NCBI GenBank assembly: GCA_039621445.1
Contig: CP154954.1
Coordinates: 37,061,703 to 37,125,702, forward strand
DNA from: Euglena gracilis
Lineage: Eukaryota
Length of the DNA: 64,000 nucleotides
Direction: 5' to 3'
Numbering within the stretch: the first letter of the stretch is position 1; each line of letters starts with the position of its first letter. The notes beneath the pieces are model-generated. The model searched no databases. It worked only from the letters and a program-made list of their open reading frames with translations, and had not been told where the DNA came from. The position numbers and the translations under genes are program-made. This document shows positions 40,660-63,277 of this stretch, in pieces.

Positions 40660-40738
40660 GTAGGGGCCCAGGGTGGCCGGGGCAGGTGGGGTGGGGTGGA
40701 TGGTGCATGTGGTTGTGGTGAGGGCTGTGGGCTGTGGC

Positions 40739-42343
40739 CAGGCACCTATAGTCAAGCCCAAAACTTCCTCATTTTAGGCCATTTTAGGCCATTTTAGACC
40801 ATTTAAGGCCATTTTAGGCCATTTTAGGCCATTTTAAGGTATAGGTGGGGGTTCTGAAATCATATGTTTTCGTTATTTTTGTCCCGAAAACTGTATCATA
40901 ACGTGTGCAAACCTTCTCTAATTAAGTTATAACAAAAGTACATCCAAAAAGCATGCAAAATTCATGAACACTGGATCAAAACCATGGGAAGCTCAACAAA
41001 TCTTAATTCATTCCCATAGAGGAATTCTGAACAGCAAGAATTTGCGGCAGTGAAAAATTTTCAGAAAAAAAATTTAACAAATATTAAAAGTTTTATTTGC
41101 ACTACCAGAAGGGCTCAGCTTTTTGTATTTTGGGGAAACTTAATACTGAAAAGAAAACCAAGTTATAAATAGGAGAGAATAATACACTAACCACACCCAT
41201 GCACCGTAATATATATTGTTTGATATAGCCAATTCATAAAAAAAATGCTTCTATGAATAATAAAAATATATTATTATCTTTCATAAAAAAAATCATAGTA
41301 TCAAATCATAATATCATTAGAGTTAGCACCATTATAAAAAATTTGTTATACATCATTCATTTCTTTATGATGATACATATTTAAAGAATAATTATTAAGA
41401 TCCATAATATAAACAAAAAATAAACTCCCAAAAAAACAATAAAAGGTGAAATATGTGAACCTAATCCTGTACCTATATACCAATAAAATATTTCACATTC
41501 TATCATATTTTATTTTTATCATGTTCAATTTTATCATATTCATATTTTATCATACTCAATTTAAAAATGATATGATTTAAAGTGGTCATAATAGTTATTA
41601 TTAACAATTACATAATTTATCAATACTATTTTTACTTAATATATATTTATTAATTTCTATTTCTGAACGTCATTAGAAAATATATATTAATAAAATTGAT
41701 AATAATAAAATACAATAATAAAATATAATAATAAAACCCACATTCAATATCCATATTAAACATAAAAAATTTGTATGATAATAAAATGTCCATTCATAAA
41801 AAAAATATTTTATATAAATTTCCTTAGAGAATTTATTATTAAATTTAGAAATTTATAACAATCCTTGTATTATATATTTCAATTGATATTTTCCAACATC
41901 TTTTGCGTTTCTTTTTCTGTCTTTTTCCCCGTGCTTCAAAACTTGCACTGTTTCATTATTTGTGAAACGGACCTTGTTCCGCACCGAAAAAAAAATGGGA
42001 GTAAGAAAAATAATTTTGTCCAAACCTTCAAAGTTCAGCTACCAAAAGGTTGGGGACTGTGGATTTTGGACTGATGCTACTTTTAATAGGGATAAAAACA
42101 TGGGCCTTGTGGGGCTGTGCTCCTCCACCAAATCCACTGTTCGCCGTCCACATTAACAAAAGACACCGAAAGTCATTGCCTCAATGGATTCAGTTGTTCA
42201 CAAAAAATTTTTGTGCAACAGAATTTTTTCCCTGAATGGATTCAGTTGTTCACAAAAAAATTTTGTGCAACAAAATTTTTCCCATTTTAGGCCATTTTAG
42301 GCCATTTTAGGCCATTTTAGGCCATTTTAGCTATAGGTGCCTG
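40739..42343. mobile_element. Non-autonomous hAT-like element (family H) carrying mitochondrial-like cargo
   Basis: 13-bp TIR caggcacctatag/ctataggtgcctg; perfect 8-bp TSD gctgtggc; subterminal (gccattttag)n arrays; empty site at ~46587-46600. Confidence 0.9.
41132..41506 (-). pseudogene. nad4: NUMT: nad4-like mitochondrial gene fragment (copy 1), inside AT-rich cargo ~41132-41885
   Basis: Reading TGA as Trp: MIECEIFYWYIGTGLGSHISPFIVFLGVYFLFILWILIIIL*ICIIIKKWMMYNKFFIMVLTLMILWFDTMIFFMKDNNIFLLFIEAFFLWIGYIKQYILRCMGVVSVLFSPIYNLVFFSVLSFP. One TAA and three in-frame TGA in 125 codons of very AT-rich DNA. Spacing resembles the ND4 D..LFY.FFE ... Y.L....SLP region. Gene identity is by eye only. Confidence 0.55.
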
Positions 42344-43399
42344 GCTGTGGCCATGCAGTCGGTGGCGGAGCAGCGGCAGCGGCTCGGGGATGGTGATGCA
42401 GCGGGCCCACTCACAGGCAGGCCCGTTTTCTTCTGCAAACACAGCCAGGGTTTTATGGAAAGCGCCAGATCTTTTTGAGATTTGGAGTATCCCCAAAATC
42501 GCAGTTTCAAATTTGGGCTTGGTTTGGGCTTCGTCCCACGACGGGTATTTTAGTGCTTTCCTTTTTGGAGGGACGGAAAAGGGCTGCTGGCAGGCTGGCC
42601 CCCAGAGGAGGTTAAATTTTCTGAAGGTCTTTCTGGTCCTGGTTGCAAGGCTCCACCCACTGCAACCCCCCCCCCCGAGGGTCGGTCCGGAGCCCGGGGT
42701 GTGGTCCGGACCCCCCTGCGGGCCAGGAGGGGTGGGGGGACACCCCCCCACCTAAACCATGTACGCCCTCCTTATATCAAACCCTGGGCTGAGGCCAGGG
42801 TGACTGTGGGGGGTCGGGGCCCAGGGGGGCCGGGTACGCTGCGGGGGCTGAGGCGGGGCTGCGGGGTAGCTGCCCCGGTGCCGCGCCGGGAACCCTCGCT
42901 CGGCCAGGGCGAGCCGAGGCCAAGCGAGGTCATCCGACACGGCCCGGGGTTGCCACGGACGCTGTGGGGGTTGGGGCCATACCATTGCTTAGCGACCCCC
43001 GGGGGGGAGGGGGGTCACTTTCCACTCCGAAAAAACCGGTCAGTCACTTTTTTTCGGCCAAGCCAGTCAGTCACTTTACCCCCCCCCAGGGGGGGGGGGT
43101 CAGCCACTCAGGAAAACCAGTCACTTTTTGGCCTTTCAAGGCCATTTTTGGCCAAAATTTTCTCCGGCGCCTTTGACGCCGGTTGGCCACTCAGCCACTT
43201 TTGGGTGATTTCTGGACTACCCCACCCCCCGGGGGGGGGGGGTCAAGGCCAAAAAAATCAGTCAGTCACCCTGAAAAAACCAGTCAGTCACCCCCCTGGG
43301 GGATGGGGTGGGACAGGTGTTAAACAATGGTCTGGTAGGGGCCCAGGTGGGGTGGGGTGGGTGGTCCATGTGGTTGTGGTGAGGGCTGTGGGCTGTGGC

Positions 43400-45001
43400 C
43401 AGGCACCTATAGTCAAGCCCAAAATTTCCTCATTTTAGGCCATTTTAGGCCATTTTAGACCATTTAAGGCCATTTTAGGCCATTTTAGGCCATTTTAAGG
43501 TATAGGTGGGGGTTCTGAAATCATATGTTTTCGTTATTTTTGTCCCGAAAACTGTATCATAACGTGTGCAAACCTTTTCTTATTAAGTTATAACAAAAGT
43601 ACATCCAAAAAGCATGCAAAATTCATGAACACTGGATCAAAACCATGGGAAGCTCAACAAATCTTAATTCATTCCCATAGAGGAATTCTGAACAGCAAGA
43701 ATTTGCGGCAGTGAAAAATTTTCAGAAAAAATTTTTAACAAATATTAAAAGTTTTATTTGCACTACCAGAAGGGCTCAGCTTTTTGTATTTTGGGGAAAC
43801 TTAATACTGAAAAGAAAACCAAGTTATAAATAGGAGAGAATAATACACTAACCACACCCATGCACCGTAATATATATTGTTTGATATAGCCAATTCATAA
43901 AAAAAATGCTTCTATGAATAATAAAAATATATTATTATCTTTCATAAAAAAAATCATAGTATCAAATCATAATATCATTAGAGTTAGCACCATTATAAAA
44001 AATTTGTTATACATCATTCATTTCTTTATGATGATACATATTTAAAGAATAATTATTAAGATCCATAATATAAACAAAAAATAAACTCCCAAAAAAACAA
44101 TAAAAGGTGAAATATGTGAACCTAATCCTGTACCTATATACCAATAAAATATTTCACATTCTATCATATTTTATTTTTATCATGTTCAATTTTATCATAT
44201 TCATATTTTATCATACTCAATTTAAAAATGATATGATTTAAAGTGGTCATAATAGTTATTATTAACAATTACATAATTTATCAATACTATTTTTACTTAA
44301 TATATATTTATTAATTTCTATTTCTAAATGTCATTAGTAAATATATATTAATAAAATTGATAATAATAAAATACAATAAAATATAATAATAAAACCCACA
44401 TTCAATATCCATATTAAACATAAAAAATTTGTATGATAATAAAATGTCCATTCATAAAAAAAATATTTTATATAAATTTCCTTAGAGAATTTATTATTAA
44501 ATTTAGAAATTTATAACAATCCTTGTATTATATATTTCAATTGATATTTTCCAACATCTTTTGCGTTTCTTTTTCTGTCTTTTTCCCCGTGCTTCAAAAC
44601 TTGCACTGTTTCATTGTTTGTGAAACGGACCTTGTTCCGCACCGAAAAAAAAATGCGAGTAAGAAAAATAATTTTGTCCAAACCTTCAAAGTTCAGCTAC
44701 CAAAAGGTTGGGGACTGTGGATTTTGGACTGATGCTACTTTTAATAGGGATAAAAACATGGGCCTTGTGGGGCTGTGCTCCTCCACCAAATCCACTGTTC
44801 GCCGTCCACATTAACAAAAGACACCGAAAGTCATTGCCTCAATGGATTCAGTTGTTCACAAAAAAATTTTGTGCAACAGAATTTTTTCCCTGAATGGATT
44901 CAGTTGTTCACAAAAAAATTTTGTGCAACAAAATTTTTCCCATTTTAGGCCATTTTAGGCCATTTTAGGCCATTTTAGGCCATTTTAGCTATAGGTGCCT
45001 G
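43400..45001. mobile_element. Family H element, second copy (by segmental duplication)
   Basis: Same TIRs, same TSD gctgtggc, same flanks and cargo as 40739-42343. Confidence 0.9.
43793..44167 (-). pseudogene. nad4: NUMT: nad4-like fragment (copy 2)
   Basis: Near-identical to copy 1 at an offset of 2661 bp; shares the internal TAA. Confidence 0.55.
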
Positions 45002-47700
45002 GCTGTGGCCATGCAGTCGGTGGCGGAGCAGCGGCAGCGGCTCGGGGATGGTGATGCAGCGGGCCCACTCACAGGCAGGCCCGTTTTCTTCTGCAAACAC
45101 AGCCAGGGTTTTATGGAAAGCGCCAGATCTTTTTGAGATTTGGAGGATCCCCAAAATCGCAGTTTCAAATTTGGGCTTGGTTTGGGCTTCGTCCCACGAC
45201 GGGTATTTTAGTGCTTTCCTTTTTGGAGGGATGGAAAAGGGCTGCTGGCAGGCTGGCCCCCAGAGGAGGTTAAATTTTCTGAAGGTGTTTCTGGTCCTGG
45301 TTGCAATTGAAAAACATATTTATGGTCCTTTATATATTCATCCCTCAAAAAGGAAAGCACTAAAATACCCATCGTGGGACGAAGCCCAAACCAAGCCCAC
45401 AGGGGAAAAACTTTTTGGGTTGCAAACAGAGCGTTCTTTAAACGACCACCCCAGGGGATTCAGCTCAGAAGCCGGAAAATTTGGGCTTGCTGACCCCTTC
45501 CCCCCCCCCAGGGGTCCCGGGCCGGAAAAGGGCTGCTGGCAGGCTGGCCCCCAGAGGAGGTCACATTTTCTGAAGGTCTTTCTGGTCCTGGTTGCAAGGC
45601 TCCACCCACGGCAACCCCCCCCCCCCCGAGGGTCGGTCCGGAGCCCCCTGGCAGGTGGGGGGGTGTGGTCCGGACCCCCCTGCGGGCCAGGAGGGGGGGG
45701 TGGGGGGACACCCCCCACCTAAACCATGTACGCCCTCCTTATATCAAACCCTGGGCTGAGGCCAGGGTGACTGTGGGGGGTCGGGGCCCAGGGGGGCCGG
45801 GTACGCTGCGGGGGCTGAGGCGGGCTGGCGGGGTTGTAGCTGCCCCGGTGCCGCGCCGGGAACCCTCGCTCGGCCAGGGCGAGCCGAGGCCAAGCGAGGT
45901 CATCCGACACGGCCCGGGGTTGCCACGGACGCTGTGGGGGTAGGGGCCATACCATTGCTTAGCGACCCCCGGGGGGGAGGGGGGTCACTTTCCACTCCGA
46001 AAAAACCGGTCAGTCACTTTTTTTCGGCCAAGCCAGTCAGTCACTTTACCCCCCCCCAGGGGGGGGGGTCAGCCACTCAGGAAAACCAGTCACTTTTTGG
46101 CCTTTCAAAGCCATTTTTGGCCAAAATTTTCTCCGGCGCCTTTGACGCCGGTTGGCCACTCAGCCACTTTTGGGTGATTTCTGGACTACCCCACCCCCCC
46201 GGGGGGGAGGGGGCGGTCAAGGCCAAAAAAATCAGTCAGTCACCCTGAAAAAACCAGTCAGTCACCCCCCCGGGGGGTGGGGTGGGACAGGTGTTAAGCA
46301 ATGGTCTGGTAGGGGCCCAGGGTGGCCGGGGGCTGTGGCCAGGGTGGTTGTGGGGGTCGGGGCCCAGGGGGGCCGGGTACGCTGCGGGGGCTGAGGCGGG
46401 GCTGCGGGGTAGCTGCCCCGGTGCCGCGCCGGGAACCCTCGCTCGGCCAGGGCGAGCCGAGGCCAAGCGAGGTCATCCGGACACGGCCCCGGGGTTGCCG
46501 GGGACGCTGTGGGGGTTGGGGCCCAGGGTGGCCGGGGCAGGTGGGGGTGGGGTGGGTGGTGTGGGTGGTTGTGGTGTGGGCTGTGGGCTGTGGCCATGCA
46601 GTCGGTGGCGGAGCAGCGGCAGCGTCGGGGATGGCGGTGCAGCGGGCTCACTCACAGGCAGGCCCGTTTTCTTCTGCAAACACAGCCAGGGTTTTATGGA
46701 AAGCGCCAGATCTTTTTGAGATTTGGAGTATCCCCAAAATCGCAGTTTCAAATTTGGGCTTGGTTTGGGCTTCGTCCCACAATGGGTATTTTAGCGCTTT
46801 CCTTTTTTGAGGGATGAATATATAAAAGACAATAAATATGTTTTTCAATGCAAATGTCAGGGGGAAAACTTTTTGGGTTGCAAGCAGGGCGTTCTTTAAA
46901 CGACCACCCCAGGGGATTCAGCTCAGAAGCCGGAAAATTTGGGCTGGCTGACCCCTTCCCCCCCCCCCAGGGGTCCCGGGCTGGAAAAGGGCTGCTGGCA
47001 GGCTGGCCCCCAGAGGAGGTCACATTTTCTGAAGGTCTTTCTGGTCCTGGTTGCAAGGCTCCACCCACGGCAACCCCCCTGGGGGGGGGGGTTGGACGGA
47101 GGTGCAGAACACCTTGCGTCAGAAGGGTGGGGGATGGTCTGCACCCCTCCCCCCCCCCTGCACACAAAACCAACCCAACCAGCACCCTGCCAGAGACCCA
47201 CCAAAAACAACAAAACAAAAATTGCACAGAGCATTGGCCCATTCTCTACCAATGTGTGTGTGCCAGGGCGTCGCTTAGCAACCCTGTGGGGGGGGGTCGA
47301 GTTCATTTGGGCTGGTTGGAAAAAGGCTGCTGACTGACGGACCCCCCCCCAAGAAGGGCAGGGATGAATGGGAAGCCTGGAGGGGGGTGGGATAGTGCTT
47401 AAAAAATTGTCTGCTTCCTTAATGCCGACAGGATGGGATTCAGCCTGAAATCCCATCAGGCTAGGGTTTGCCAACCCTGGGGGGGAAGGGGTGCCTCGGA
47501 ATGCCCTGGAGTGCCTGGGCAGACAGCCCCCCCCCCCCCCGGGGTCGGTGCCTGCCTGGCCGTGGACCAAAAAGCGCCCAACAGTGGGTTTTTCTGGGCA
47601 TCCGGCGCCTGAGGCACCGGAAGGGCCTTGGCCAAGTGCCCAGCCAGTTTTGGCCATGTCTACCCCCCCCCCGGGGTTGGATCTGCCTTGGGGTGCCTGC

Positions 47701-47996
47701 CAGGCTGTATTTTAGTCGGGTGCCGACCCCACCCGGGGGGGGGGGGGGTGCCTGCCTGGGCAGGCACCCCAAGGCGCTCCAAATCCGACGCCCCCAGGGG
47801 GGGCACACGGCCAAAAGTGCCCTAGCACAACCCGGGCCCGGGGAGCCAAAAATGGCCTATTTTCAAAGAAATGTGCCCGGGCACAGGCCGAAATGCGACC
47901 CCACCCCCCGGGGGGGGGGGGGTAGTGCCTGCCTGGGCAGGCACTCACAGGCACTCCGGACCCCCCCTCCCGGGGTTGGTAAAAAAAAACAGCATG
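47701..47996. mobile_element. hAT-like MITE
   Basis: caggctgt...acagcatg; perfect TSD gtgcctgc. Confidence 0.65.
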
Positions 47997-48437
47997 GTGC
48001 CTGCCCAGGCCGAGTGGGGTCGGCACCACCTTAAAAATGCAGCCTGCTTCCCATCTGAAGCGACGCCCTGGTTCCAACCCCAGCAACCCCCTCCCAGAAC
48101 CGCCGAGTCCTTTGAGCAAGGGGGAAAAAAACAGTGGCCTGGCTGAAGCTGGGGAACCGGGGGGCACTGAAGGCTGAAGGTCGAGATGTCTGGTGGGCGA
48201 CGCTGTGGTAGGCTGTGGTGGGCTGTGGCGGTGGGCGACGCTGTGGCGCAGTCGTCGGAGGCGTTGGCCAAGGGCGAGTTGACCAGCGGAGGCGTTGGCC
48301 AAGGTGGTCGGCGGAGGCAGCGTCTTCCGTCCAGGGGGCCACCACCCGCGCCAGGGGCCAGCACCACTTGGTGCCCATGGCCCTGGTGGTGGTGGGGGGG
48401 GGGGGTTGGGGGGGATTGGGGGGATTGGGGGGGGGGG

Positions 48438-49184
48438 GAGGCTTGTATGGGAATCTCCGAGGGGGGGGGACCCCTTTCCAAAACTGGGGGGGTGGGGGGA
48501 GCACTTGTGCTTATAGGGTGCCTGCCCCCCGCAGGCACCCCCCCTTAGTTGCACTAAGGCTTCTTGTCTGGCTTCTGTGTCCCCCCCCCCCGGGGGGGTC
48601 TGGGGGGACCCAGAAAATTTTCATTGAAAATGGCCTCTTCCGGGCCCCCGGCGTCTTCGGCACCAGGGTCGGAGGGGAACACCCCCCAAAAACCCCACCT
48701 CCCGGGGGGGGGGGGGGTCGGATCGGGTGCTATAGGGTGCCTGCCCCCGGCAGCGCCCCTGTGGGGTAACCCGACTAAACACAAGGCCCCCCTCCTACCT
48801 CCAGTTTTCGGTCGCTGCAAATTTCGGCCGTTTCTTCGGTCAAAAAATAATTTTTTCGAAATTTTTCGAAGTCCCGTAAGACCCAAAATAGCACCAAAAC
48901 CCCCTTTGGGGTCGTTTTTGTCCTTTCTCATAAAATTTAGCATTTTTGGAGGCCAGATGATCCAGCAAAAAAATCAATTTTTTTTCGCAATCTGTTGTCA
49001 GAGATTGTGATTTTTACCTAAATTTTCAGTCAAACTCCGGGTCGTCGGCCCGAGATTTGGGGGGGGGGTATTAATTCGGTGGCCGAAGTCGAACCCCGGG
49101 GGGGGGGGGGGGGATTATTTGGAGGGGGGGATTATTTCGGGGGAGGGTTTACCTCATGTCTGCGGAGCTTCCCATAAAACCCTG
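48438..49184. mobile_element. Dispersed copy of the MITE family that forms intron 56685-57189
   Basis: Left end aggcttgtatgggaatctc...ttccaaaactggggggg and right end catgtctgcggagcttcccataaaaccctg match the ends of 56690-57186; the interior carries other repeats. Confidence 0.7.
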
Positions 49185-52100
49185 GGGGGCTGGTTGGCTG
49201 TGATGTGATGCACCATCATTCAGGGAGGACAACAATCGGAGTACAGGATCATTGCGCATTTTTGGGCCTCCCCCCCCCACGGGAAGCACGGTGTTTCAGG
49301 TGTCCCTGCGGCATTGCCGAAAAAATTCATCGCGTTTGAAGTTGGGTGAACGGTTCGCTCCTTTGCTGGGGAGATTCTGGAGTATTCCTGCTTGGGTTTT
49401 GAGTTAGGATTTAGGGGAGGTGGGTTGGCACCTGCTGCCGGGGGGAGGTGGGTTGGGGGAGCTGGCTTGGTGCAATATTTACGGAGCCGAAAATGAGGGA
49501 CACTCCGGGGGGGTGCCCACCCTTGCCCCCCAATCCAACCAAAAAAGAAGGCTTCTCGGATCGGAGGTGCATTGCATCACAGTCAGCCCGTGGCATAGCC
49601 AGGCCAGAACAGGAAACCCGGGGATTGCAACCCTCCCACCCACACCCATGCGCATGGTCTGCGGCAATTCATAAAATTCAGACTATGGCACCAAAGGGGC
49701 CGGGGCAAATTTGCAAAGCGAACTGTTCAAGTACCACCTGCCACCCAACCCCAATTGACAAATCTTTCCTTTCGGCGCTTCGCACCAAAACTTTGGGCAA
49801 ATGAGATGGGATGGGGGCAAATTGGTGGGGCAGGGAAATTATTGTGCAAAAATACCCCCCCCCCCAAAATAGCACGTCGGCCAAATCTTGGTGGATTTTG
49901 GACTTATTCGGCCCAGAACTTTGCGTCGGGCCAAAAATCTGGCCAAAGAGCCGAAAAGGTGTCCCCTGACCTGATTGGGGGGGGGGCATAATGTCGTTGG
50001 ACATGGGGGGGGGCACAACGTGGGGATGAGGGGACCCTCCCACCCAAAGAAAAAGACCAGGCCATTCCGGTTCTGGTCTGGGTACGGAGGGGGGGGCTGG
50101 CTGGGTAATCACCGTGAGAGACGAGTTTGCTTCAATGGCCAAAGATGAAACAAATAAATACCAAGGCCCCCCCATATAAGACCCCTTCGGGGTGTTGGCT
50201 TCCGGGGCCTCATATGGGGGGGGCGTGGTAATTGGCCAAACCCCAGCCTTCCCAAATGCCGAATCTCCCCTGCCATGGAAATTTCAAACACAACTTCATT
50301 GGGGACTGGCAATTGCTTTTCTTCCTGCAATGTGTGCGGGTTTTCATGGGCCTTGAAAGCTATAATAACATTTTTGTGTGGCTTGTGCTTACGGTGGGTG
50401 CTAGAAGGTGCCTGCCCCAGCAGGCACACCGGCACACCCCCCGGGGGGGTCCGGGGGGACCCAGAAAATTTTCATTGAAAATAGCCTCTTCCGGGCCCCG
50501 GCGCCTTCGGCGCCAGGGTCGGAGGGGAATGCCTGCTATGGTCAGGTGCCCCCCCAAAAACCTCACCTCCCCCCCGGGGGGGGGTCGGATCGGGTGGTAT
50601 AGGGGCCTGCCCCAAGCAGCCCCCCCCCCCCGTGGGGCAGGCACCCGACTGAGCACAAGCCTGATTCCAAACTCTGTTTCTTCACTCATTCAAAGAAGAA
50701 AACAAAGAAGGGGAAAAATCAACAAGGGAATCCAGTCAAAACTCAACCCTCCAGGGATTACCCAGCCAGGAGGGGGAATCATGGCACAAAGTGGAGCCCC
50801 CATGCCCCCCCCCATGCCCCATGCCCCAATACCCCCCCGTACCCCCCCCCATACCCCGTACCCCCCCATACCCTGTACCCCCCCACACCCCCTACCCCCC
50901 CCATACCCCAATTTTTTTTGCCTGAAACCATGCTTTTTGGCCTCCCGGACCCGTAAAACCTGTTTTCGCACCGAAATTGAGTGCCTTTCGGTGTTTGAGT
51001 CAAAAAATGGGCAAAAAAGTCGGAAAAATTCCGAAAAATTTTTGTTTGAAACCATGCTTTTCAGCCTCCCAGACCCGGAAAACCTGTTTTCGAGCCAAAA
51101 ATGACATATGAAACTGTTCGAGTGCCCAGGGCCCCGGACCCCCCCCCCCAGCAACAAAATAAGCCTCTACCGACTTTTTCTGTGGGCAAATCACGCGTCG
51201 TATGAAACTGTTCGAGTGTCCGGGGGCCATAAACTTCATGAAAAACATCCCCAAACCCTCCCCCCCCCACGCCCCCCCTGCACCCCCCATATCCCAGGTA
51301 TGGGGCCCCACTTTGTGCCATATGTGGGGGGGGGGGTGTTGTTCCCCCCATTCTGCTCCTCCACCACGCCCATGGGCACACTGGGTGCCAACCCCACAGT
51401 CTGATCGATAGACAGTCCAATCGGATTGTGCCAAGGATTGCAAGCAGAGTCATTCTCAGGAAACAAAAATGATAATTTGATCAATGTGCAAACATGTGCA
51501 TGCACATAGTGGTGCATATATGGTGGAAATATAATGTATATTTTATATGTATTTGTATCTATCTATCTCTATCTCGATCTCCATCAGCACGCGTACACTG
51601 CGCACATTTACATCTTTCGTGTGCAAACGTTAGTGTGTTTGAGTGCATGTCTGCAAGGTGGACATAAATTTATAATGCAAGGTATTACAATCCTTGGGTG
51701 GGTGGACCTGCGCGTGGGCAACAATGCTGGATCAACCACAGGGCTGCACAAGGAAAGCCATGTGGGCACCCGTTTGTTTCTCAAGGACTGGACCCCCAGT
51801 GTCCAGGGGAGCCCAGCCGCAGACAGCTGGGAAACAGGCAAAAAAAAACTGAATCCAGCCAGGTTGGCATTCGGAAGCCAAAATTTGGAGGCAAGAAACC
51901 CCCACAATCTCCCCAAAAATGCCATTTTTGGTCATCTTTGAGCAAACACTTCCTAGCGCAATGCATCGGGAAAAAAGGTTTCGTCCAGCCAGCTTCTTTG
52001 GACTGGCCAACACTTTTATCCAGCGGAACCCTCTGTGGAGGGTCCGCAGCCCGGCAGGGAAATGCTGGGAGGCTGGACCCCCCCCCCCAGGGGGAACAGG

Positions 52101-52580
52101 GTCACCTCCAACTCAAGAAAACCCCGACCCCCCCCCCGGTCGGCCCCTGGTGGGGGAGACAGCCCACCCACCCAGGAGGAGGGAGGCAGGGTATTCAGTA
52201 GGGGGGGGGGCAGTCCCAGACCACCTCCCCCTCAGTGTCAACCCCCCAGTGTGAGTCAACCGCCCGGAACATTTTTTGAGGGGCTCCTGAAATGAACCAA
52301 TCCCCTCCTCCCCTATCAGGCCGAGGGGGTGGGGCACCCCTGGAACCAAACTTTTTCTTCCCGGCGTTTTGCAACAAAAAATGCTTTCTTTTCAGAAAAT
52401 TTTGTGGATTTGTGGGGGAGAAAACTGCCTGCAAGCGAATGAAACGACCTCGAGAACTGGCGCCTGTGGAAACCTGGGAAAGCCTGGGGGATCAGCCTCC
52501 CCCCCAACCCCCACCCTCATTGGGGTTCCGGGATTCCCATTCCGCCCTGGCCATCGACCTCGTGCGTGGTGCTGCACCGC

Positions 52581-55500
52581 TCACCGGTGCAGCTTGCGCT
52601 TCAGCTTCCGCCACGCCCTCTTCAGGGCGTTGGGCCGTGCGCAGGGCACAGCGCCATGCACCGTTGCATCTCCCTGGGTCAGGGCGTAGCTTGGGGGGGT
52701 CCAGCTCAGAAGCCGGAAAATTGGCTTGGCTGGAATAAAGCTGCTGGCTGACCCCTGCCCCCTCCCGATCCTGTCGAAGCAGGCACCAAAAAAAAATCGA
52801 AATGGCAAAAAAAATCCAAAAAAAACTGCCAATCATGCAAAGAAAAGGGCCCAAATTTGCCCTGACCAGCCCTTTTCCAATTTCGTCATTTTTGTCCATT
52901 TTTGGCCCATTTTTCACCCCCCCCCCCAAAGTGAGGCTGGAAATAAATAAAACTCGTTGAGGGCGGGAGGGGGCCCCATGCTGGAAAAAAGGCTGCTGGC
53001 TGGCTGGAGCCGGGTTCGATCTCAAGGCAGGTGGGGGTGGGGGGTCCCGGAACCCCCCAGGGTTGGTCCGGACCCCCTTGGCAGGGTGGTCCAGGAGGGG
53101 GGTGGGGGGGGACACCCCCCACCTGAACCCTGGGCGCCCTCCTTATATCGAACCCTGGGCTGGAACCCCCCATGGGATCAAATTTTCTTAAGCTGCGCCC
53201 CAACCTGAAAATTGCCAATCCCCCACCAAAGCCAAAGCTGGGCGGGCTCAAAAAACGTTCACTGGCGAGGAGGAAAAAAATCAAAACCGTGAGCCGCCCC
53301 GAGCCAAAGAGACACCCCCCCATGCTTAATTATCTCCAAAAAAAACATTCTCTTGTTTTTTGAGCTGAATTTTCACTTTGCGTGTAAAAATTTCATTGGT
53401 TTTCGAGTATTCTTCATCATTCACGCGAAGAAACTTCCTGGACAGGGAAGCAGGGGGCTCTGGCAACTCTTTTGGAAAGCCCTCAGTGAAAAAATGGATT
53501 TTCAACCCCAGCCCCAGATGGGATGAGTTATGCATTGAATGTCTTTTTTTTGCTCCTTCCCCATCAGGGAATTTTGTGAGCCGGAGGGTACCCTACCCCC
53601 CGGGGGGGGGGGTCCAGCCAGCCAGCAGCTCAAATCCAGCCAGCAGCCCAAATTCGGGCTGGGAGCCCCCCTCCTGGGGGTCGAGTAAAATAAAACTGGG
53701 TCCAGCCCAACTGGAGGCCGGGCCAGCCAACCGCAGGCGGGCCAGCCAACTGGGCTGCCCAGCTCACTTATCCTTGCTTTTTTTCTCCTCATCACAGCCC
53801 TCCATCACAGCCCCCCAGCCTTGATCTAGCTCCACCGATCAAAACGTCTAAAATGACAAAAATGTGTTAGAAAATTTTGTTTTTCCTCGACCCAGCCCAG
53901 CCCAGTCCCCTCCAGTCCCGGACCCCCCCCCCCCCCCGCCGGGGGGGGGGGGGTCCAGCCAGCAGCTCAAATCCAGCCAACAGCCTTTTTTGCCAGCCGG
54001 AGGCTGGACCATACAATTGCTTACCGACCCCCAGGGGGGGGGAGGGGGGTCACTCCACTTTTTTAAAAACCAGTCAGTCACTCATTTTCAAAAAACCAGC
54101 CAGTCACTACCCCCCCGGGGGGGGGGGGGGGGGTCGGCCACTCAGAAAAACGGCCACTTTCCAGTCACTTTAGGCCATTTTAGGTCAAAAAAAATTTTCC
54201 GGCGCCTTCGGCGCTGGGGTCACTCAAGCCACTTTTGCCCACTCCTGGCCGACCCCCCCCCCGGGGGGGAGGGGGTCCGGGCCCAAAACCAGTCAGTCAC
54301 TCTGAAAAAACCAGTCACCCACCCCCCCGGGGGGGGGGGGGGGGGGGTGGGACAGTGCTTAAGCAATTGTCTGGGCTGGACCCCCCCGGGGGGGGCCCTT
54401 AAGAAATTCCCTGTTCCCCATTCATTTAGAAAGGAGCAGGGGTTTTTCTTAAGACCGGGGGGAGGTCCCCCGCCCACCAACCCCTGGAGGGGCCTCCCTG
54501 GGGGGGGGGGGGTCGGGGGACCCACAAAAAAAAATGGCCGAAAATCGCGAAAAGTGCTAAAAAATAGCACTTTTTCAAAAAATTTCTGCGCCAAAAGCGC
54601 TGAAAAGCACATCCCAGCCCCCTCCGGGGGGACCCCCCCCCCGGGTCCCGGGGCCCCACCCACCCACCCTACCCCCCCCCTGGAGTCCACGATGAAAAAA
54701 ACCCCTGGAAAGAAGGACAGAAGACAGAAATTGTATTTTGGTGTGCCATGTTTTATGTGCCCTGGCTGGGGTTGCGCCACCGCTGCTGCTTCAGCGGCCG
54801 GCGCGGCCGGCAGCTCGGCTGGCAGCGCAGCTGGCGCGACAGCCGGCGCGGCTGGCGGCGCAGGCGGCTCCGCAGGCCGGGCAGCGACAGGCCGTTGCCA
54901 AAGATGGCGGGGGAGGGGTGCCTCGGATTTGCACCAGAAGAGGGGGGCTTGGCACCCTGTCGCTTCTTCAAAGAGACCGTGTTGAGGGGGGACTGCACAA
55001 ACTTCTTTACACTGATCCCAGGGGTCACGTCCACCCAAAAAACCAGTCAATCTCCCCACCCACCCCAGGAGGGTCCCAGGGGACCCACCGAAAATGGCCG
55101 AAAAATCGCGAAAAATGCTAAAAAAAAGCACCTTTTTCAAAAATTTTCGGCACCTTCAGCGACGAAAAGTACATCCCACTCCCCTAGGGACCCCCCCCCA
55201 TGGGGGGGGTTGGCTGGACCCACCCACCCTGCCCCCCCCCACCCCCAGGAGGTCCAAAGCTTGAAAAAAAACCTGGTCGGGATGGGATACCCCACTGATC
55301 AGTGAGTGATTGTCTGCGTGGGACTTGCAATGCAGAAAGGCAGGAGGAGGGGCAGTCCGTCAGGAAGGGCCTGCCCGGCAGGCCACAGCCGGCGCCGGAT
55401 CTCCCGCACCACCGCCTTCGCCTTCGCCACGGGCCCGGGCGGCGGCGGCGGCTGCGCGTCCCTCCACCGCTGGAGGGGCGTGGTGGGGTTGATGAAGGGG

Positions 55501-57269
55501 GCGGGCACTTGGCCGCAGGCCGGTCCCCCAGGAACCCGCTTGGGGTGGGGGTGGGAAACAAACGGCCCGCGAGGTTTGGAGAACTTTGGAGAACTTTCTT
55601 CAAATTGTGAGCCGAAAGGCATCCGTTGGACCTGAAAGAAACCCAATCAGGAAACAGGCGGAGTGCAACAAAGCGATTCAAAAAAAAACATGTGTTGCCT
55701 GTGAATTCCGTTTACCTGCATTTCACACCCCTGACCCCAATTGCCAAGTCCAGCACTTTTGTCCTTCAATGATGAGGGCTTTAAACACATTTATCCGGAT
55801 TTCCAGGCTCTTCCAGGAATGTGGCCAAGTCGCCAACCGGGAGGGGCCGAAAAAAAAGGGGGGGACAGGCCTGGCCCCAGCAGCAGGGCGTGGACGGCGA
55901 GGTCGCCCACGGCGCCCACCATGATGGCCCACGTGTGGGCCATGCGGAGGGCGGCGTAGGCGGCGTTGTGCCGCCACGCCCCGGCTCAAAGGGGACAGGG
56001 GGAGGGAGGGGACCAGGCTGTTTTTTTACCAACCTGGGGGGGGGGGTCCAGAGTGCCTTGGAGGCCAGACCAAAATTGTTGAAAATCCCTTGATTTTTCT
56101 TTGAAAATGAATTCCTTGAAAATTGTGAACACTTTAGCTGCGGAAAGCACCCCAAAAATGCGCAATATGCTCAAAAGTGAGGAAAAGGGGCATTTTTGTT
56201 CATTTTCCGGCGCGCCAAAAGAAATATTTTTGTCATAAAGAAGGGGGGGTCCGGACCCCCCCAACCTCCAGGAAGGGGCCCCCTCACCCACCTTCAAACC
56301 AAAATGCTTCCAATCCATCCCTGGGGAGGGACCAGGGAGACCCCAAGCCAAGCCAACGGGGGGGGGGGGGTGAGCCAGGGTGTGGCCCGCCGTAGCCGTT
56401 GCCCTCGACTTGTTCGCGCAGGCGGCGGTCGATGGCATGGACGATGGCGGCGACGGCTGGCGGCGGAGGGCCCTCTGCCAGGGGGGGGGGGAGGGGAGGT
56501 TGGATTTGGATGAGAGACAAATCCGTTGGGGGTTTGCGAATGAACTTGAAGGCAACCCTCCGCCCCTTGAAATGCAACCGCAAAGGGCCCCCCGCTTGCG
56601 GTGCACGGGTACAACCCGGCGACCCACCGCAGCCGCGGCCGCAGGCAGTCCACGTACAGCGAGCTGTACGTGGCGACCACCGACAGCCGCAGGCTTGTGT
56701 GGGAATCTCGGGGGGGGGGGGGGGGGCTCCCCTTCCAAAACTGGGGGGGGGGGGAGGGTGAGGGTGAGGGGGGACCCCCCTACCTCCAGTATTCAGTCGC
56801 CGAAAATTTTGGCCCTGTTTGGGTCAAAAACATCAATTCTTCTGAAATTCCTCAAAAATGGTGGACAAAATGTCAGATACCTAAATTGAAGCCTTGAAAT
56901 GCCATTTTGATTTCCCCTCAACTCCCCTCCTGGCCCAAGTTACAGCCATTTTTCGACCAATTTTGGCCATTTTGCCAAAATTTCATATCGAGCTTCAAGA
57001 GGGTCCAAAAATGCACACCGGAAGATTTTTATTTGCCCCTGCAGAGGAGGGGGAGGGGGGTGGGTGGGGGACCCCCTTCCGAAACCGGGGGGACGGGGGT
57101 GGGGGGACCCCCCTGCCACCTTACCCCCCTAGGGGGGGACCCCCTGCCACCTGCGTCATGTCTGCGGAGCTTCCCATACAACCCTGGCCAGCCATGCCAG
57201 CGCGTTGGCCAGGCGGCTGTCGGTGGTCGGCAGGATCAACAGCAGGGCCCATTGGTAGGTCAATGCACC

Positions 57270-57340
<71 letters not shown>

Positions 57341-57658
57341 GTAATAATAATAATAATGATGATGATGATGATGATGATGATGGTAATAATAATAATAATG
57401 ATGATGATGATGATGATGATGATGGTAATAATAATAATAATGATGATGATGATGATGATGATGATGGTAATAATAATAATAATGATGATGATGATGATGA
57501 TGATGGTAATAATAATAATAATGATGATGATGATGATGATGATGATGATAATAAGAAGAAGAAGAAGAAGAAGAATAAGAATAAGAATAAGAATAAGAAT
57601 AAGAATAAGAATAAGAATAATAATGATGATGATGATGATAATGATAATAATAGCAATA

Positions 57659-57712
<54 letters not shown>

Positions 57713-57721
57713 GCAACAATA

Positions 57722-57786
<65 letters not shown>

Positions 57787-60700
57787 GACAATAATGATGA
57801 TGACGATGATGATGATGATGAAAAAAGGAAAATATTCAACATCTCAACAAAACATGTTGACTCGATTTGGCTGGGGGTCAACAGCACCAATCTAACCCCC
57901 CAGCACAGCAAAAAAAAACCAGGCTTACAATGTTTCAGCCAAATTCCTCTGAATGGGAGTGAAACGCAACGCTGGCAGTAATTCAAACCTGACCCAGGAA
58001 GCCGGCTCCACAAACTCCGGGTTGTGCTCCCAAATTTCACCTTTCCGTTTCTCTGACCCCAAATGCCGACGCCACTCGGCCCTGTGCGTCCAGCCCGCGG
58101 CGACGATGGGGGCGAGCAGCAGGGGCACCAGCCACCAGCTGCGGACCTGTGAGAGGGGAAGTGGTATGAGCTTTGTGATAATTCCCCCTCGCTGCCTGGG
58201 AAAATGGCAACCAAAAAAAATGCGGTAAAAAATGTACGATGTTCTGCGAGTCAACCCACAAAATGCAAAACATTTGGGGGGCAACGTCAGAGGATCAGGC
58301 TTCTTTTCATCAACCTGGGGGGGGGGGTATTGTGCCTCTCGGAGCCTACCAGCCAGGTCATTTTTTAGAGGCCATTTTTGGGCCATTCGGCGTCAGGGGG
58401 TGTGCTGTGGCGCCAACCCACCCCAAACCCCGACTCCCCGGGTCGAAAATGCCCTACCCCTGCCTGCCAATAGCACCCCCCCCGGGGGGTGCGCATTGCA
58501 AAGAATCAAACAGAAACCCATGTGCATCCCTCGCCATCGTTATCGCCTTTAGAAAGCTGCATTTCACCAAATCTGTCTTCTTTTGAATTTTATCAGTTTT
58601 TTAATTCATTCCGGAGAAATTTGTGGAGACGTGAGCGAAGATCAGGCGGATGTGGGGCGCAAGCAATGACATACCGTTAGCGGTGCGCGGGGCGGTCGTT
58701 CCCTCGCTGCCTCACGCGCCAGCAGCGCGCTCTCGAACTGTGAGAGGCAGGGGCATTTGAGGTTGTAAATCTGAAACACAGCCTGGGAGTGTCCGGACCC
58801 CCATCCAGGCTTCTTTTAAGACCCCCGGGGGGGGTCCCCCCACCCACCCAGGGTGGCGCGGGACCCCGGGGGGGGACCCCAAAATCGGGCCCGTTAAAGG
58901 CAATTTTCAAAAATTTTCGGTGCTTCGCGCCGAAAAGGTATACCCGGCGCGGGACCCACCCCCCGGGGGGTCCGGCCCCGGACCCCCCCCCACCCACCAG
59001 ACATTCATTTAGTGTGGCTCACAAAAGATGTGTGAACCACAAAATTTTTTTTGGTGTCAACAGGTGAACCACAAAAAAACTCTCGGTGTCCACGGTGAAC
59101 CACAAAATGACAACGTTGGTATACCACACTGAATAAATGTCTGGCACTCACCCTCCCTCCCCCCCCCGGGGGGGTCTGCTGACTTAAAAAGAAGCCTGCC
59201 CCCATCCCTCGGGCAGGGTATTAAATGAGTGTTGGGGGGGGTTGGATTGTGCAAAAAAATTTCTGGCAACGGAAAAAACCAAAAAATCGAATTTTCGAAA
59301 AAAAAATTTTGAAGAATCAGTCAAACAATGCACCACCCATTTTTTATTCTTTCTGGGTTTCCGGGGGTCCCAGACCCCTCGGTCTGAAGGGGGGGTCTGG
59401 ACCCACCAGGGTGGGTCCAGGTGGCACCCTCCCCCCGGGGGGTCTAACCCCTCTTTCCCCGCACCCCCCCCCCTCCCGCAAGACCACTGTTCACTCAACA
59501 CAGGGGAAAAACTTCTCCATCGGGCAAATGACAAAAGGTCGACAGAATTTTTGGTCTCGGGGGAAAATCGAGGGCAAAACGAGCAATTTTTCATTGTCAA
59601 AAAGACCTTGACCCTTACCTTTGCCCAAACCCTTTTTGAAACTAGAAAATCGGGAGGGAGAAAAAAACAAAATGCAACAACAACAATAACAACAACAACA
59701 ACAACAGACATAAAAACACAAATTTTATCAAAATAGAAAAACACAAATAATGCAAAAAAAACATTTGCGTTCCCCTTGCCTTCCCCTCCCCTTGCTAAAA
59801 CTAACGCTTGACACTTTGTTACTGCCAGTTGAGTGAAGATCCAGCACACCCCCGATCCATTTGTGAACCCGGACAAACCCCAAACGCACCGACCTCCACA
59901 CAGTCCCGTGGCACGGGGTCTTCTGAGTTAGTAATGGGCCTGGACACCATGAAAGTGCTAAAAATAGCACTTTCGGCGCCTTCAGCGCCGAAAAGCATAT
60001 CCCACCCCCCTCCGGTGGGACCCCCAGGGGGGGGGGCTCGGCCGGACCCACCCACCCTACCCCAGGGTTCGATATAAGGAGAGGAGGGGGGGGGTGGTCC
60101 GGACCCCCCTGCAGGCCAGGAGGGGGGGGGGACACCCCCCCCACCTGAACCATGTACGCCTCCTCATATCAAACCCTTCCCCCCCCCCCCCCCCCCACCG
60201 GGCAGGGTTCGATATAAGGAGGGGGGGGGGGTCCAGACCCCCCCCCCTGCGGGGCAGGAGGGGGGGGGGGGGCCACCTAAACAGTGGCGCGGTCAGGGTG
60301 ACCGATTTTCGGCCCAGCGCAAAGCGCCGGGCCGAAAAATTTTGACCCCCCAAGACGACCAAAAGTGCCATTTTGGGCACTTTTTGGGCAAAAATTGGCC
60401 AAAAATGCAAAAAAATTTCGGCGCAAAGCGCCGGAGGAAAAAATTGCCCCTTTTTGGGGGGGGGTCCCGGGTACCCCCCCCGAGGGTCGGTCCGGACCCC
60501 CCTTGCAGGTGGGGGGGGGGGTGGTCCGGACCCCCCCTGCAGGCCAGGGAGGGGGGGGGGGGGGGGGGACACCCCCCCACCTAAACCATGTACGCCCTCC
60601 TTATATCGAACCCTGCCCCCGGGGTCCACGACCAAAAAAACCCCTGTCCCCCACAGGTGGCTTTTGAAGAGAACTGTCCAGGTTGAATCCAGAATTCCAG

Positions 60701-63277
60701 GGGACGGGGGTGCACAATGAAAATGAAAAGAGATTCGGAAGCAAAGCGCAAGGCAGAACACACCGTGGCGAAGCGGCAGGCCGGGCACAGCGGCACGCTG
60801 CGCCCGGCGACCTCCGCCTGCACCATCCCCAGCCGACGGTGGTGGCCCCACGCCCTTCGTTACTTTGTCATTGTGTTAACATGCATGGGAATGAGGTCCT
60901 TGACAGGCAGGGGTGGGGGGGGCTTCCCCCCCCCCACGGAAATCCCCCGTCCCCAAAAGTCAGTTTCCTTCCAACCGAAAATGGCATTTTTGACAGAAAT
61001 TTGTTATTAAATTATCTTTGCACTGTCTGGGTCACCACAACGCACATTTAACAGAAGAGCACACATTTAAAGAAGGGCGTGGGCGGCAGCGGGCACAGAG
61101 GTCCGGGTCCGCCACCGCGTGGCGGACCTGGATCTCCTTCGCCGTCCCCAGGGCAGAACGGGAAGGCCTGGTCCACCCGGGAGGCGGGTGTTTGACCCCC
61201 CACCCCACCACGGCAATTTCACAGATTTCTTATCAGATAACATTGATAGACCTTATCAGATAACGTAGATGACAATTTCTTTCCCCGCCCCTTTGGCGCC
61301 GGAAAAAAACTTTGGGGTCGAAAATTGGTGTTCCCGGAAATACGGTGGTGTGGTTGGCCTCCCGTTCTGCCCTGGTTGTCCTCTCCGCGGGGGTCTCGAT
61401 CAGCCACCAATATTCGGCGGCAGGCTGCTTTTTGTTTGTTTTGTTTTGTTGTTTCGATAAACACCACAAAAAAAAACCGCCTGCTCAAGCAGCTGCCGAA
61501 TCCCACGCAGTGGGTTGGCAGCGCGGCGCGCGCGGGCCAGCAAGTTTTGGGGCGGATGGAGCTGGTGTTGCCCCCAGGCCGTGCTGGACTGATGGGGGGG
61601 GGGGCTTCACCACAATTGCAATGCAGGCGTCTTTCCAACGCCTCTGCGTGGTGTGGGACCCTCAGAACAAAAACCTCTGGGGGGAAGCCATTGACCTTCT
61701 TTAAAAACCATGGGAGTTTTGTGCTGAAAAAAATTTCTGGTTTGGCGCAAAAAAAACCCATTTTTCTGATTTTGGGACAGATGCAGATGTGGTGGTGGCT
61801 GCTGGTGGCACTTTTCGGGGGGGTTTGTGATAAACAGAAACTGCAGAATGAAAGCACCACGCGTGGAATCCGAACAAACGCCGGGTTTTGGGATGATGAT
61901 CCCCCACCCTGGCCATGAAGCAGACACAAGCAAGACACGGCCGCAATGTACACACCCTACCCTGGATATCCAAATGGCAGCCATATTCTAAATGCCCCCC
62001 CCTGGGGGGCCATTTAGAGTGACCAGGGGGTCAAAATAGTTTTTTTGTGTTAATGATGGAGTTGGGTTAGGTGCGCGACTTAGGCTTAGGGTTAGGCCTA
62101 ACTTATAGATGGGTGTTCGGTGTACAAGTTAGGCCTAACCCTAAGCCTAAGTCGCGCACCTAAACCTACTCCATCATTAACGAAAAAGATGCCAGGGGGG
62201 GGGGGCATTTAGAGTGACCAGGGGGGGCCATTTAGAATATGGCTGCCATCCAAATAACCCCCCCAAATAACACCCCCCCCCCTTGTGTTACTTGGGCACC
62301 CTGGGTCCCCAGGGGGGGGGGAATTTGGGGGGGGGTGTTATTTTTTACATGGAAAACCAAAAGAAATTAGGGGGGTGATATTTGGGCGCTCGAAATCGGC
62401 CCCGGAGAGGGGGGGGGTGTTATTCGGGGGGGGGGAGAAGCCTGAAATTATGAAGTGGAGACAAACACAAAAAACTTACAGAAACCTCCTCTATCTTTTG
62501 TTGCGAAACTTCCAAAAGTCAAAAACCCTTCTGGAGTTTGACTGCGAAAACCACATGGGGGGGGTCGACCCCCCGCAGAGCAATGTAAAACTGCCAAATG
62601 AGGGGAGGGGGCTTCAAGAATCCAATGCCAGGGAAAAATATTCTCACCTCTGTCCAACCCCCCACCCCGGAGGAGAAGAGGACAGAGGGGTGTGCAACCA
62701 TCGGCCGACCCCTCCCCCAGGGGTCCACTCTTCCGAAAACCAGGCAGTCACCAAGAACCAGGCAGTTTGGAAATCCAGCCAGTCCCCCACCCCCCCGGGG
62801 TCAGCTGCTCTGGAATCTGGAACGGGAAAAAAATGGCAGAAATATTTTGCGGCCGGGTCACCTTTGCGATGACTGCTTCTGGAGGGAGGTGGACAGGGAC
62901 AAAACCCAGTCAGTGATCCCCCTGGATTGGTGAAGAAACTGCAAAGGCGGGGGTGAGGTGCGGGAGTCCCTTTTGTGAAATTTCGGCAATTTTTTGCCCA
63001 AAAAAGTTTTGGCTGATTTTTGGCCGCTTTTGGGTCCAAGGGTTTTCGGCCTTATGCTTTGCGCCAGGACGCTGTGTCTGTGACGGGAGGGGGGTCATAG
63101 CGGAGTCGCCTGAGCACAGGGGGGCAAATGATTGTGTGCACCCCTGGTATTTCTTTGATGGCCCACATTTTCCTGGCCACCGGGGCCTGCATGGCGATCC
63201 CGCTCGTGCTCCGCTGCCTTCTCGTCCGCTTCCTGCAGGAGCACGGCGGGGGCGACGTAGGCGGCGGGTGGCGGGAC
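52581..63277 (-). CDS. 5'-partial 14-exon gene; hypothetical membrane protein with CxxC-x19-CxxC motif (376 aa in window)
   Basis: Manual exon join (minus): 63277-63193, 61569-61487, 61415-61378, 61143-61085, 60843-60764, 58737-58675, 58146-58071 (alt. end 58041), 57268-57190, 56684-56598, 56458-56382, 55975-55877, 55510-55377, 54882-54768, 52636-52581 = 1131 nt, one open frame ending in TGA. Exons are GC3-rich islands. Translation: VPPPAAYVAPAVLLQEADEKAAEHERDRQHQLHPPQNLLARARRAANPLRGIRQLLEYWWLIETPAERTAKEIQVRHAVADPDLCARCHHRRLGMVQAEVAGRSVPLCPACRFATFESALLAREAARERPPRAPLTVRSWWLVPLLLAPIVAAGWTHRAEWRALTYQWALLLILPTTDSRLANALAWLSVVATYSSLYVDCLRPRLRWVAGLYPCTAAVAAIVHAIDRRLREQVEGNGYGGPRRHNAAYAALRMAHTWAIMVGAVGDLAVHALLLEVPAPFINPTTPLQRWRDAQPPPPPGPVAKAKAVVREIRRRLWPAARPAEPPAPPAAPAVAPAALPAELPAAPAAEAAAVAQPRPNALKRAWRKLKRKLHR*. 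Family not recognised. Confidence 0.82.
54010..54373. mobile_element. Independent copy of the cagtcagtcac MITE family
   Basis: catacaattgctta/taagcaattgtctg; perfect TSD ggctggac. Confidence 0.85.
54437..54707. mobile_element. hAT-like MITE related to family E
   Basis: caggggttttt...aaaaacccctg; TSD gaaaggag/gaaagaag (7/8). Confidence 0.8.
56685..57189 (-). other. Nonconventional (non-GT-AG) intron formed by a hAT-like MITE plus one TSD copy
   Basis: T|ggc-CAGGGTTGTATGGGAAGCTC...GAGATTCCCACACAAGCCTG-cggct|G. The element 56690-57186 is flanked by gacagccg/gccagcca (6/8). Removal restores the frame ...LAWLSVVATY... Confidence 0.8.
57270..57820. repeat. Compound microsatellite (GAT)n/(AAT)n/(AAG)n/(AAGAAT)n, intronic
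   Basis: Seen directly; abuts the AG acceptor at 57269-57270. Confidence 0.97.
58806..59198. mobile_element. Family E MITE
   Basis: Same TIR; perfect TSD cccccatc. Confidence 0.9.
58998..59143. mobile_element. Minimal family D MITE nested in a family E MITE
   Basis: cagacattcatttagtgtgg...ccacactgaataaatgtctg; TSD ccacccac/gcactcac (6/8). Confidence 0.75.
60203..60615. mobile_element. Family G MITE
   Basis: cagggttcgatataaggag/ctccttatatcgaaccctg; TSD ccaccggg/cccccggg; short adjacent copy at ~60063-60178. Confidence 0.8.
61144..61377 (-). other. Nonconventional intron
   Basis: C|aac-CAGGGCAGAACGGGAGGCC...GGCCTTCCCGTTCTGCCCTG-gggac|G; long terminal stem; in-frame join ERT|AKE; TSD relic aggacaac/gggacggc (5/8). 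Confidence 0.8.
61570..63192 (-). other. Nonconventional intron (1623 nt)
   Basis: C|atg-CAGGCC...GGCCTG-ggggc|A; in-frame join DRQHQL; contains the MITE at 61976-62247. Confidence 0.65.
61976..62247. mobile_element. GG-terminated hairpin MITE (Merlin-like)
   Basis: TIR ggcagccatattctaaatg/catttagaatatggctgcc; perfect TSD atccaaat; internal palindrome shares gggttaggtgcgc with family B. Confidence 0.8.

Follow-up and report, generated by a model that had tools for sequence, protein, structure and literature searches.

Our analysis of a 64,000-nucleotide stretch of the Euglena gracilis genome (contig CP154954.1, positions 37,061,703 to 37,125,702 of the forward strand; the whole of it is called "the window" below and is numbered from its first letter) centres on a short element at positions 56690–57186, here called e1. 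We judge it probable, at roughly 0.6, that e1 is a CAG-ended miniature transposable element with inverted repeats (MITE) which lies in an exon of a minus-strand gene and would be removed from the RNA, together with one copy of its target-site duplication (TSD), by the nonconventional splicing known from euglenids. In the mechanism that we propose, a non-autonomous cut-and-paste MITE, whose ends have the form CAG(G/A)(C/G) and which duplicates 8 bp of its target when it inserts, would have entered a protein-coding exon of that gene; its ends would then provide the CAG...CTG helix that the euglenid splicing system recognises, and cleavage 3 nt ahead of CAG and 5 nt past CTG would take from the pre-mRNA the element plus 8 nt, the length of one TSD (an intron from 57189 to 56685), and restore the reading frame that existed before the insertion. 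We infer the transcription of the gene, the excision at 57189/56685 and a kinship of the element's group with hAT transposons from the DNA sequence. The features discussed are collected in Table 1.

Knock-in mutagenesis has shown that nonconventional introns require the code 5'-N3CDG-/-CH'GN5-6|R, in which the 3-nt donor spacer tolerates no change of length and the 5-nt acceptor spacer tolerates one additional nucleotide (Nomura et al. 2025, PMC12501133; this and the other papers given by PMC number are cited from extracts of their text). Both ends of the predicted intron follow this code. On the minus strand 57189–57184 read GGC CAG, that is N3 and then CDG, and at the other end CTG CGGCT is followed by a purine, the G at 56684; the plus strand breaks the purine rule, since a C comes next there whether the spacer is N5 or N6. 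The ends of e1 pair in a helix of 17/20 positions, formed by its terminal inverted repeats (TIRs), in the minimum-free-energy (MFE) fold as well as in the centroid fold, and GT/GC-AG borders are absent, as the predicted intron starts with GGC and ends with GGCT. A preliminary description of this DNA had pointed out that the 3 + 5 = 8 flanking nucleotides removed amount to one TSD, and the arithmetic agrees with the spacers of the code as given in the extracts of PMC12501133: where an 8-bp TSD surrounds a CAG...CTG element, cuts at 3 nt and 5 nt remove exactly one duplication's length. In this interpretation 56685–57189 would be a spliced intron.

The assignment of e1 itself to a multi-copy family of non-autonomous TIR elements is strongly supported. 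The element begins CAGGCTTGTG and ends CAACCCTG, and its 20-nt TIR arms, which start with CAG and end with CTG, are complementary at 17 of 20 positions (85%), so the imperfect repeats of about 20 bp first described here are real; subterminally it carries repeats of the GGGGGGACCCCCC type, a direct-repeat family. An 18-mer from its left end is found at 3 places in the window with no more than 3 mismatches (0.08 expected), and a 22-mer from its right end occurs twice (0.00 expected). The dispersed relative that had been proposed at 48438–49184 (e2) does share both ends and an inner part with e1, with 81% identity over the left ~64 nt, 80% over the inner 76 nt and 97% over the right 31 nt. It also contains an additional block of about 300 bp, a dispersed repeat found again at 50437–50659 and 30230–30424, and it is surrounded by poly-G and non-coding-like flanks. 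The TIR consensus has 10 sites in the window versus 0.25 expected. Interior pieces of e1 are highly repeated in genomic DNA: the summed contig depth in DNA run X1, a quantity that is not a copy number, ranges from 11,933 to 506,247 within e1 versus 163.6 in the flanking exon. Contigs of the same run join 48468 to 48787 (3 contigs), omitting the additional block of e2, and also join 56749 to 48787; these joints suggest more family members elsewhere, with the reservation that joints with a short side cannot be trusted at repeats. A pattern scan of metagenomes returned 0 matches for the right end of e1 and 11 loci for its left end, all of which proved on inspection to be unrelated chance matches.

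The 8-mers that flank e1 (gacagccg and gccagcca) had been described as an 8-bp TSD. Their letters, their positions and the 8-nt register all hold; the candidate duplication, however, is imperfect, with agreement at 6/8 positions. The flanks match best in the register of 8, and elsewhere between 3 and 12 nt the match does not exceed 3/4, 5/12 or similar. A match of at least 6/8 arises by chance with a probability of 0.011 among 200,000 random window pairs and of 0.015 among 17,406 codon-aligned pairs from the putative exons (two of the six exon pieces used for the latter were in the wrong frame, which affects this null distribution alone).

A cut-and-paste group with CAG termini and 8-bp TSDs is well established in this DNA, as the preliminary description had maintained, and it is abundant in the window. 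We scanned the whole 64 kb in two ways. The first scan took CAG...CTG pairs at distances of 60–3000 bp whose termini were complementary at 13/16 positions or more and found 86, many of them array artefacts, of which 7 have flanking 8-mers that agree 8/8. The second took exact direct repeats of length n around TIRs of at least 10/12 and left the termini free; it found 7 CAG...CTG elements at n = 8, versus 0, 1, 0, 0 and 0 at n = 5, 6, 7, 9 and 10, and a further 5 elements at n = 8 with one CAG end and one CAT end, while 30 Markov-2 simulated windows yielded 15 matches of any kind in total. When 18 elements were tabulated by register, 10 were perfect, at n = 8 only, and the independent insertions with perfect 8-bp duplications number 10 after removal of two tandem-duplication copies. 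The terminal consensus from 36 ends is C 35, A 36, G 32, G/A 28/8 and C/G 25/11 at positions 1–5. The stretch 58798–59206 reads cccccatc, CAGGCTTCTTTT...AAAAAGAAGCCTG, cccccatc, and the nesting of CAG-ended elements within one another (Table 1) points to repeated waves of insertion. Perfect 8-bp duplications with CAG/CAT ends lie at 30226–30525, 40308–40659, 47701–47996 and 54010–54373; by the published code such elements should not be spliceable. The region 40577–47000 has marker repeats at 40577, 43252 and 46226, which give about three tandem copies of a 2.7–3.0 kb unit; the unit contains a CAG-ended element of 1.6 kb, whose TSD is identical in two copies, 40739–42343 and 43400–45001. Finally, 61976–62247 is a 272-bp element with a 12/12 TIR that starts GGCAGCC, so that its CAG stands 2 nt inside the end, and with the perfect 8-bp duplication ATCCAAAT.

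This group bears directly on whether e1 is a transposon at all. Its inverted ends could in principle have evolved for splicing, and its boundary repeats could stem from double-strand-break repair or chance; one study has indeed put forward such repair as the source of the 8-nt repeats in the gapC intron (extracts of PMC4770533), and the flanking repeat of e1 is imperfect. A relative with the same ends nevertheless lies among non-coding poly-G flanks, and at least 10 independent CAG-ended elements with perfect 8-bp duplications, some of them nested, stand outside coding-like sequence, which is the signature of transposition and not of selection for splicing. We regard an origin of e1 without transposition as very improbable indeed.

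We place the group provisionally near the hAT superfamily by resemblance in TSD length and CAG termini. MITEs of the hAT superfamily (e.g. Ds-like ones) have 8-bp TSDs, short TIRs that start with CAG, short subterminal repeats and a non-autonomous size; the hAT terminal consensus is YARNG, and 8-bp TSDs are made by other superfamilies too. The elements of the window are like hAT MITEs in all four features, and the exact 8-mers of the 7 CAG...CTG and 5 CAG/CAT elements agree with the first of them. They differ at position 5 of their ends, which is mostly C and not G. YARNG is thus matched in part (G at position 5 in 11/36 ends, C in 25/36), and a Pfam search of 10 open reading frames (ORFs) from the two longest elements found no transposase, BED or hAT dimerisation domain; both points tell against the assignment.

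Composition, frame and fit to the splicing code together support the view that e1 sits in a coding exon. Its minus-strand flanks read ...GALTYQWALLLILPTTDSRLANALAWL and SVVATYSSLYVDCLRPRLRWVAGLYPCTASGGP... A strand-blind scan of the 64 kb for GC periodicity gave 19 segments, and two of these (56590–56717 and 57178–57269) adjoin e1, one per side. Within 60 nt of e1 the GC content at one codon phase is 1.00 on one flank and 0.95 on the other, at least 0.30 above the next phase, a bias reached by 1.08% of 5000 random windows, and GC at the first codon position (GC1) exceeds that at the second (GC2) on both flanks, which favours the minus strand. Removal of the length of e1 plus 8 nt makes the codon phases of the two flanks continuous, and the earlier claim that such a removal restores the reading frame is borne out to the extent that the coding-like flanks join in frame. 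Neighbouring periodic segments are linked by a C-rich-tract...AG and by another code-conforming CAG...CTG element; we read the 3' limit of the downstream exon, at about 56553, from a GT...C-rich tract...AG intron. Just upstream of the putative exon, in the sense of the gene, lies a 552-bp (TGA)n-type microsatellite with (ATA)n blocks (57270–57821), probably within an intron. Three RNA raw-read runs that bear the same species label (X21, X22 and X24; about 5–6% of each) mapped on 47500–57262 have a depth of about 0–1 over the unique parts and are uninformative for expression and splicing; nearly all of the reads mapped there from these runs and from DNA run X1 are poly-G or repeat fragments, and the lack of a joint at e1 among the 15 joints listed (1026 more exist) has no bearing on splicing. 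The RNA runs also place hundreds of mostly-G reads on the poly-G tracts 54328–54351 and 56710–56727, and these piles look like sequencing artefacts rather than transcripts.

Several observations weigh against the interpretation of e1 as a TSD-flanked, spliced insertion in a gene. Its own candidate duplication, as noted, falls short of 8/8, and GGCTG-like words are common locally and may inflate the match between its flanks. The first base of e2 is G (GAG), so one of its ends lacks the CAG. At least 4 of the 19 periodic segments are no exons but microsatellite or palindromic repeats with a period of 18, although the flanks of e1 are neither. Continuity of frame tests merely (length + k) mod 3, and periodicity of GC at the third codon position (GC3) picks no strand by itself; an open frame crosses the junction on the plus strand as well. 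Protein comparisons were almost empty: the downstream exon had one weak match, with E = 3.3e-4 and no aligned stretch, among 1.84 billion protein representatives, and no match in the 'longer' class of a word index of 5.8 billion proteins, in which a 70-aa piece of a further exon likewise had none, and 10 minus-strand ORFs around the locus had nothing above the Pfam cut-offs. The gene is backed by composition and frame logic, there being no protein or Pfam match. A BLAST of the six putative exons against the window found no copy that lacks the insertion, and the window yielded 0 matches when scanned for Rfam families and for tRNAs.

One could read these points to mean that e1 is a real MITE in a dead or silent gene copy, or in no gene at all, where it would be an ordinary unspliced insertion whose fit to the code is automatic. 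The putative exons without protein homologue and the ORFs without Pfam match suit this explanation, as do the facts that every element with CAG TIRs carries the code motif by construction and that long open frames arise by chance in GC-rich DNA. It accounts poorly for the extreme GC3 periodicity on both flanks right up to e1, with frames that join, for a purine rule that holds on the very strand favoured by GC1 > GC2, and for neighbouring segments that are linked in the ways described above. A recently dead gene would look alike; these features weaken the explanation, and we consider it unlikely.

The last point on the opposing side is a second inverted repeat, formed by the exons themselves, which the preliminary account of the intron overlooked. 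Its 20-nt arms match at 19/20 positions (95%), one directly adjoining e1 and the other in the upstream exon, and both predicted folds, MFE and centroid, pair them in a helix that stacks on the outside of the TIR helix. The arms carry CAG and CTG in register and define an alternative in-frame intron of 544 nt, from 57222 to 56679, that fits N3-CAG...CTG-N5|G; as the difference between 544 and 505 nt is 39 nt, the frame is kept by either intron. The functional intron might be this outer one, or both might be used, in which case the MITE would be a passenger and the 6/8 flanks a by-product of local sequence. However, the outer intron would cost the upstream exon 33 nt that the inner one leaves in place, and these stay coding-like, with GC at 10/11 third positions by hand count, and the outer helix continues through the cut sites into the exons, whereas in an intron derived from a transposable element we would expect the helix to start at CAG/CTG and the N3 and N5 spacers to be unpaired direct repeats. 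No such outer helix is present at the other two exon-flanked elements (below). The coding-like 33 nt and the helix that runs through the cut sites favour the inner intron, and we hold use of the outer one to be improbable, more so than a dead locus. The hairpin either predates the insertion, which would then have occurred at the base of its 3' arm, or arose afterwards.

Coding-like, phase-consistent flanks are found in 3 of 21 elements examined (e1, 55516–55873 and 61149–61374), and in all three the frames join under the N3/N5 rule. Their flanking 8-mers match at 6/8, 0/8 and 5/8, respectively; all of the elements with perfect duplications among the 21 have non-coding-like flanks. The 5/8 match agrees with the weaker TSD relic that had been seen at the intron 61144–61377, and 6/8, 5/8 and 0/8 versus 8/8 in non-coding flanks fit the age series of TSDs suggested at the same time, with n = 3. 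On a wider view, which we advance tentatively and at slightly less than even odds, nonconventional splicing would be a precise RNA-level excision of one superfamily of CAG-ended transposons with 8-bp TSDs. Provided that the purine rule holds, the message would then lose any such insertion into an exon, whichever its orientation; nonconventional introns, which are about 72% of the introns of E. agilis, would for the most part be decayed insertions, and the 'slidable' repeats at intron boundaries throughout the genome would be remnants of TSDs. Such a generality would explain how a genome tolerates introns that outnumber the conventional ones, and would link the machinery of splicing with the cut geometry of a transposase. 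The window makes the question testable, as it has living-looking CAG-ended MITEs with perfect 8-bp TSDs and what appear to be decayed copies exactly where introns should be, and 3 + 5 = 8 offers a numerical reason, testable genome-wide, for the message to be restored under the splicing code.

A MITE origin of nonconventional introns is a published hypothesis (PMC3935182), and 'TSD-like' boundary repeats are also in print (PMC11282704); 'slidable' direct repeats have been reported at 84.4% of introns, with the remark that the origins of nonconventional introns 'remain unclear' (Nomura 2025, PMC12501133), and direct repeats of eight nucleotides border a nonconventional intron newly acquired by the gapC gene of E. 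agilis, where they were ascribed to double-strand-break repair (PMC4770533). In their length these independently reported repeats speak for our interpretation of e1. The extracts of PMC3935182, PMC4770533, PMC6221363, PMC11170887, PMC11282704, PMC12501133 and PMC12621601 contain neither a statement that N3 + N5 equals an 8-bp TSD nor an assignment to hAT, and a term search of PMC12455990 gave no match; supplements to these papers (e.g. Table S3 of PMC4770533 and the datasets of PMC12501133) may bear on this. As an idea, the MITE origin is not new, and what the sequence appears to add is a concrete candidate and the link between 3 + 5 = 8 and the TSD. The preliminary description is supported in part: it stands as regards the MITE family, the group with 8-bp TSDs, the arithmetic and the frame, while its intron is a predicted one, its hAT label a resemblance and the TSD that it gives e1 imperfect.

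The candidate has CAG at +4..+6 and CTG at -8..-6, paired ends, no GT-AG, spacers of 3 and 5 nt, a purine at the exon start and direct repeats at its boundaries, all as in the nonconventional introns known from euglenids (Milanowski et al. 2014, 2016; Nomura et al. 2025). Unlike them it is tied to a dispersed family with a non-genic copy and has many sibling elements with perfect 8-bp TSDs, and it is predicted from sequence. The introners of Micromonas, Aureococcus, dinoflagellates and others (extracts of PMC11282704) are similar in that they, too, are DNA transposons in exons that are taken out of the RNA, and in that the TSD enters the arithmetic that restores the message, but they use GT-AG and the spliceosome, whereas e1 has neither border and would need the euglenid CAG/CTG helix system. 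In maize an exonic hAT-type element, Ds, is also removed from RNA (Giroux et al. 1994, cited in PMC3935182, extracts); there excision relies on cryptic sites of the spliceosome and is as a rule imprecise, while the rule for e1 would be exact by construction.

Table 1. Positions of e1, its surroundings and other CAG-ended elements in the window.
Feature	Positions	Strand	Remarks
Predicted nonconventional intron, 505 nt	56685–57189	minus	N3 57189–57187 + e1 + N5 56689–56685
MITE-like element e1	56690–57186	minus	497 bp, CAG...CTG, too small for transposase
TIR arm of e1	56690–56709		3' arm in minus-strand transcript, ending ...CCTG
TIR arm of e1	57167–57186		5' arm in minus-strand transcript, starting CAGGG
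Candidate TSD copy gacagccg	56682–56689		flanking 8-mer of e1
Candidate TSD copy gccagcca	57187–57194		other flanking 8-mer of e1
Putative upstream exon piece (...GALTYQWALLLILPTTDSRLANALAWL)	57190–57270	minus	GC3-periodic; flank GC by phase 0.50/0.65/0.95
Putative downstream exon (SVVATYSSLYVDCLRPRLRWVAGLYPCTASGGPFAVAFQGAE)	56553–56684	minus	GC3-periodic; flank GC by phase 0.65/1.00/0.50
Arm of 19/20 inverted repeat	56671–56690		downstream exon; directly adjoins e1 and includes its 8-mer
Partner arm of 19/20 inverted repeat	57213–57232		upstream exon, 26 nt from e1
Family relative e2	48438–49184	plus	both ends in common with e1; GAG left end; nested ~300-bp repeat
CAG...CTG element	55516–55873	minus	TIR 13/14; between coding-like segments; N3/N5 rule joins frames; flanks 0/8
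CAG...CTG element	61149–61374	minus	TIR 16/16 plus one outer pair; coding-like flanks; frame-consistent; flanks 5/8
Young CAG-TIR element	58806–59198		perfect 8-bp TSD cccccatc
Nested CAG-TIR element, 146 bp	58998–59143		inside 58806–59198; flanks 6/8
CAG-TIR element	53565–54413		perfect 8-bp TSD TTCCCCAT
Nested element	54010–54373		inside 53565–54413; perfect 8-bp TSD GGCTGGAC
CAG-TIR element	25101–25381		TIR 16/16; perfect 8-bp TSD CACACCAT
CAG-TIR element	39625–40116		perfect 8-bp TSD GGCTGAGG
CAG-TIR element, 1417 bp	16144–17560		perfect 8-bp TSD AACCCTAC; ORFs without Pfam domain
CAG-TIR element, 1605 bp	40739–42343		perfect 8-bp TSD GCTGTGGC; again at 43400–45001 in tandem duplication

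Short-loop palindromes were considered as possible excision footprints and dropped, as 2 of 51 hairpins lie in putative exons, which is about the chance level. Long perfect palindromes with an 18-nt unit (GTTGCGCTACATGGCCA...) are present at 5077–5130, 16068–16121 and 19725–19806 and mimic codon periodicity in the GC3 scan. A satellite of about 195–200 bp, with a CAGCTGGGTTCCCC motif at regular spacing, forms the array at 1385–4291 and others like it up to about 15 kb. Short TTAGGG-like (telomere-type) runs are found inside hairpin or palindromic structures at 5224–5285, 17640–17701 and 62067–62163, the last of which is a hairpin with perfect 38-nt arms.

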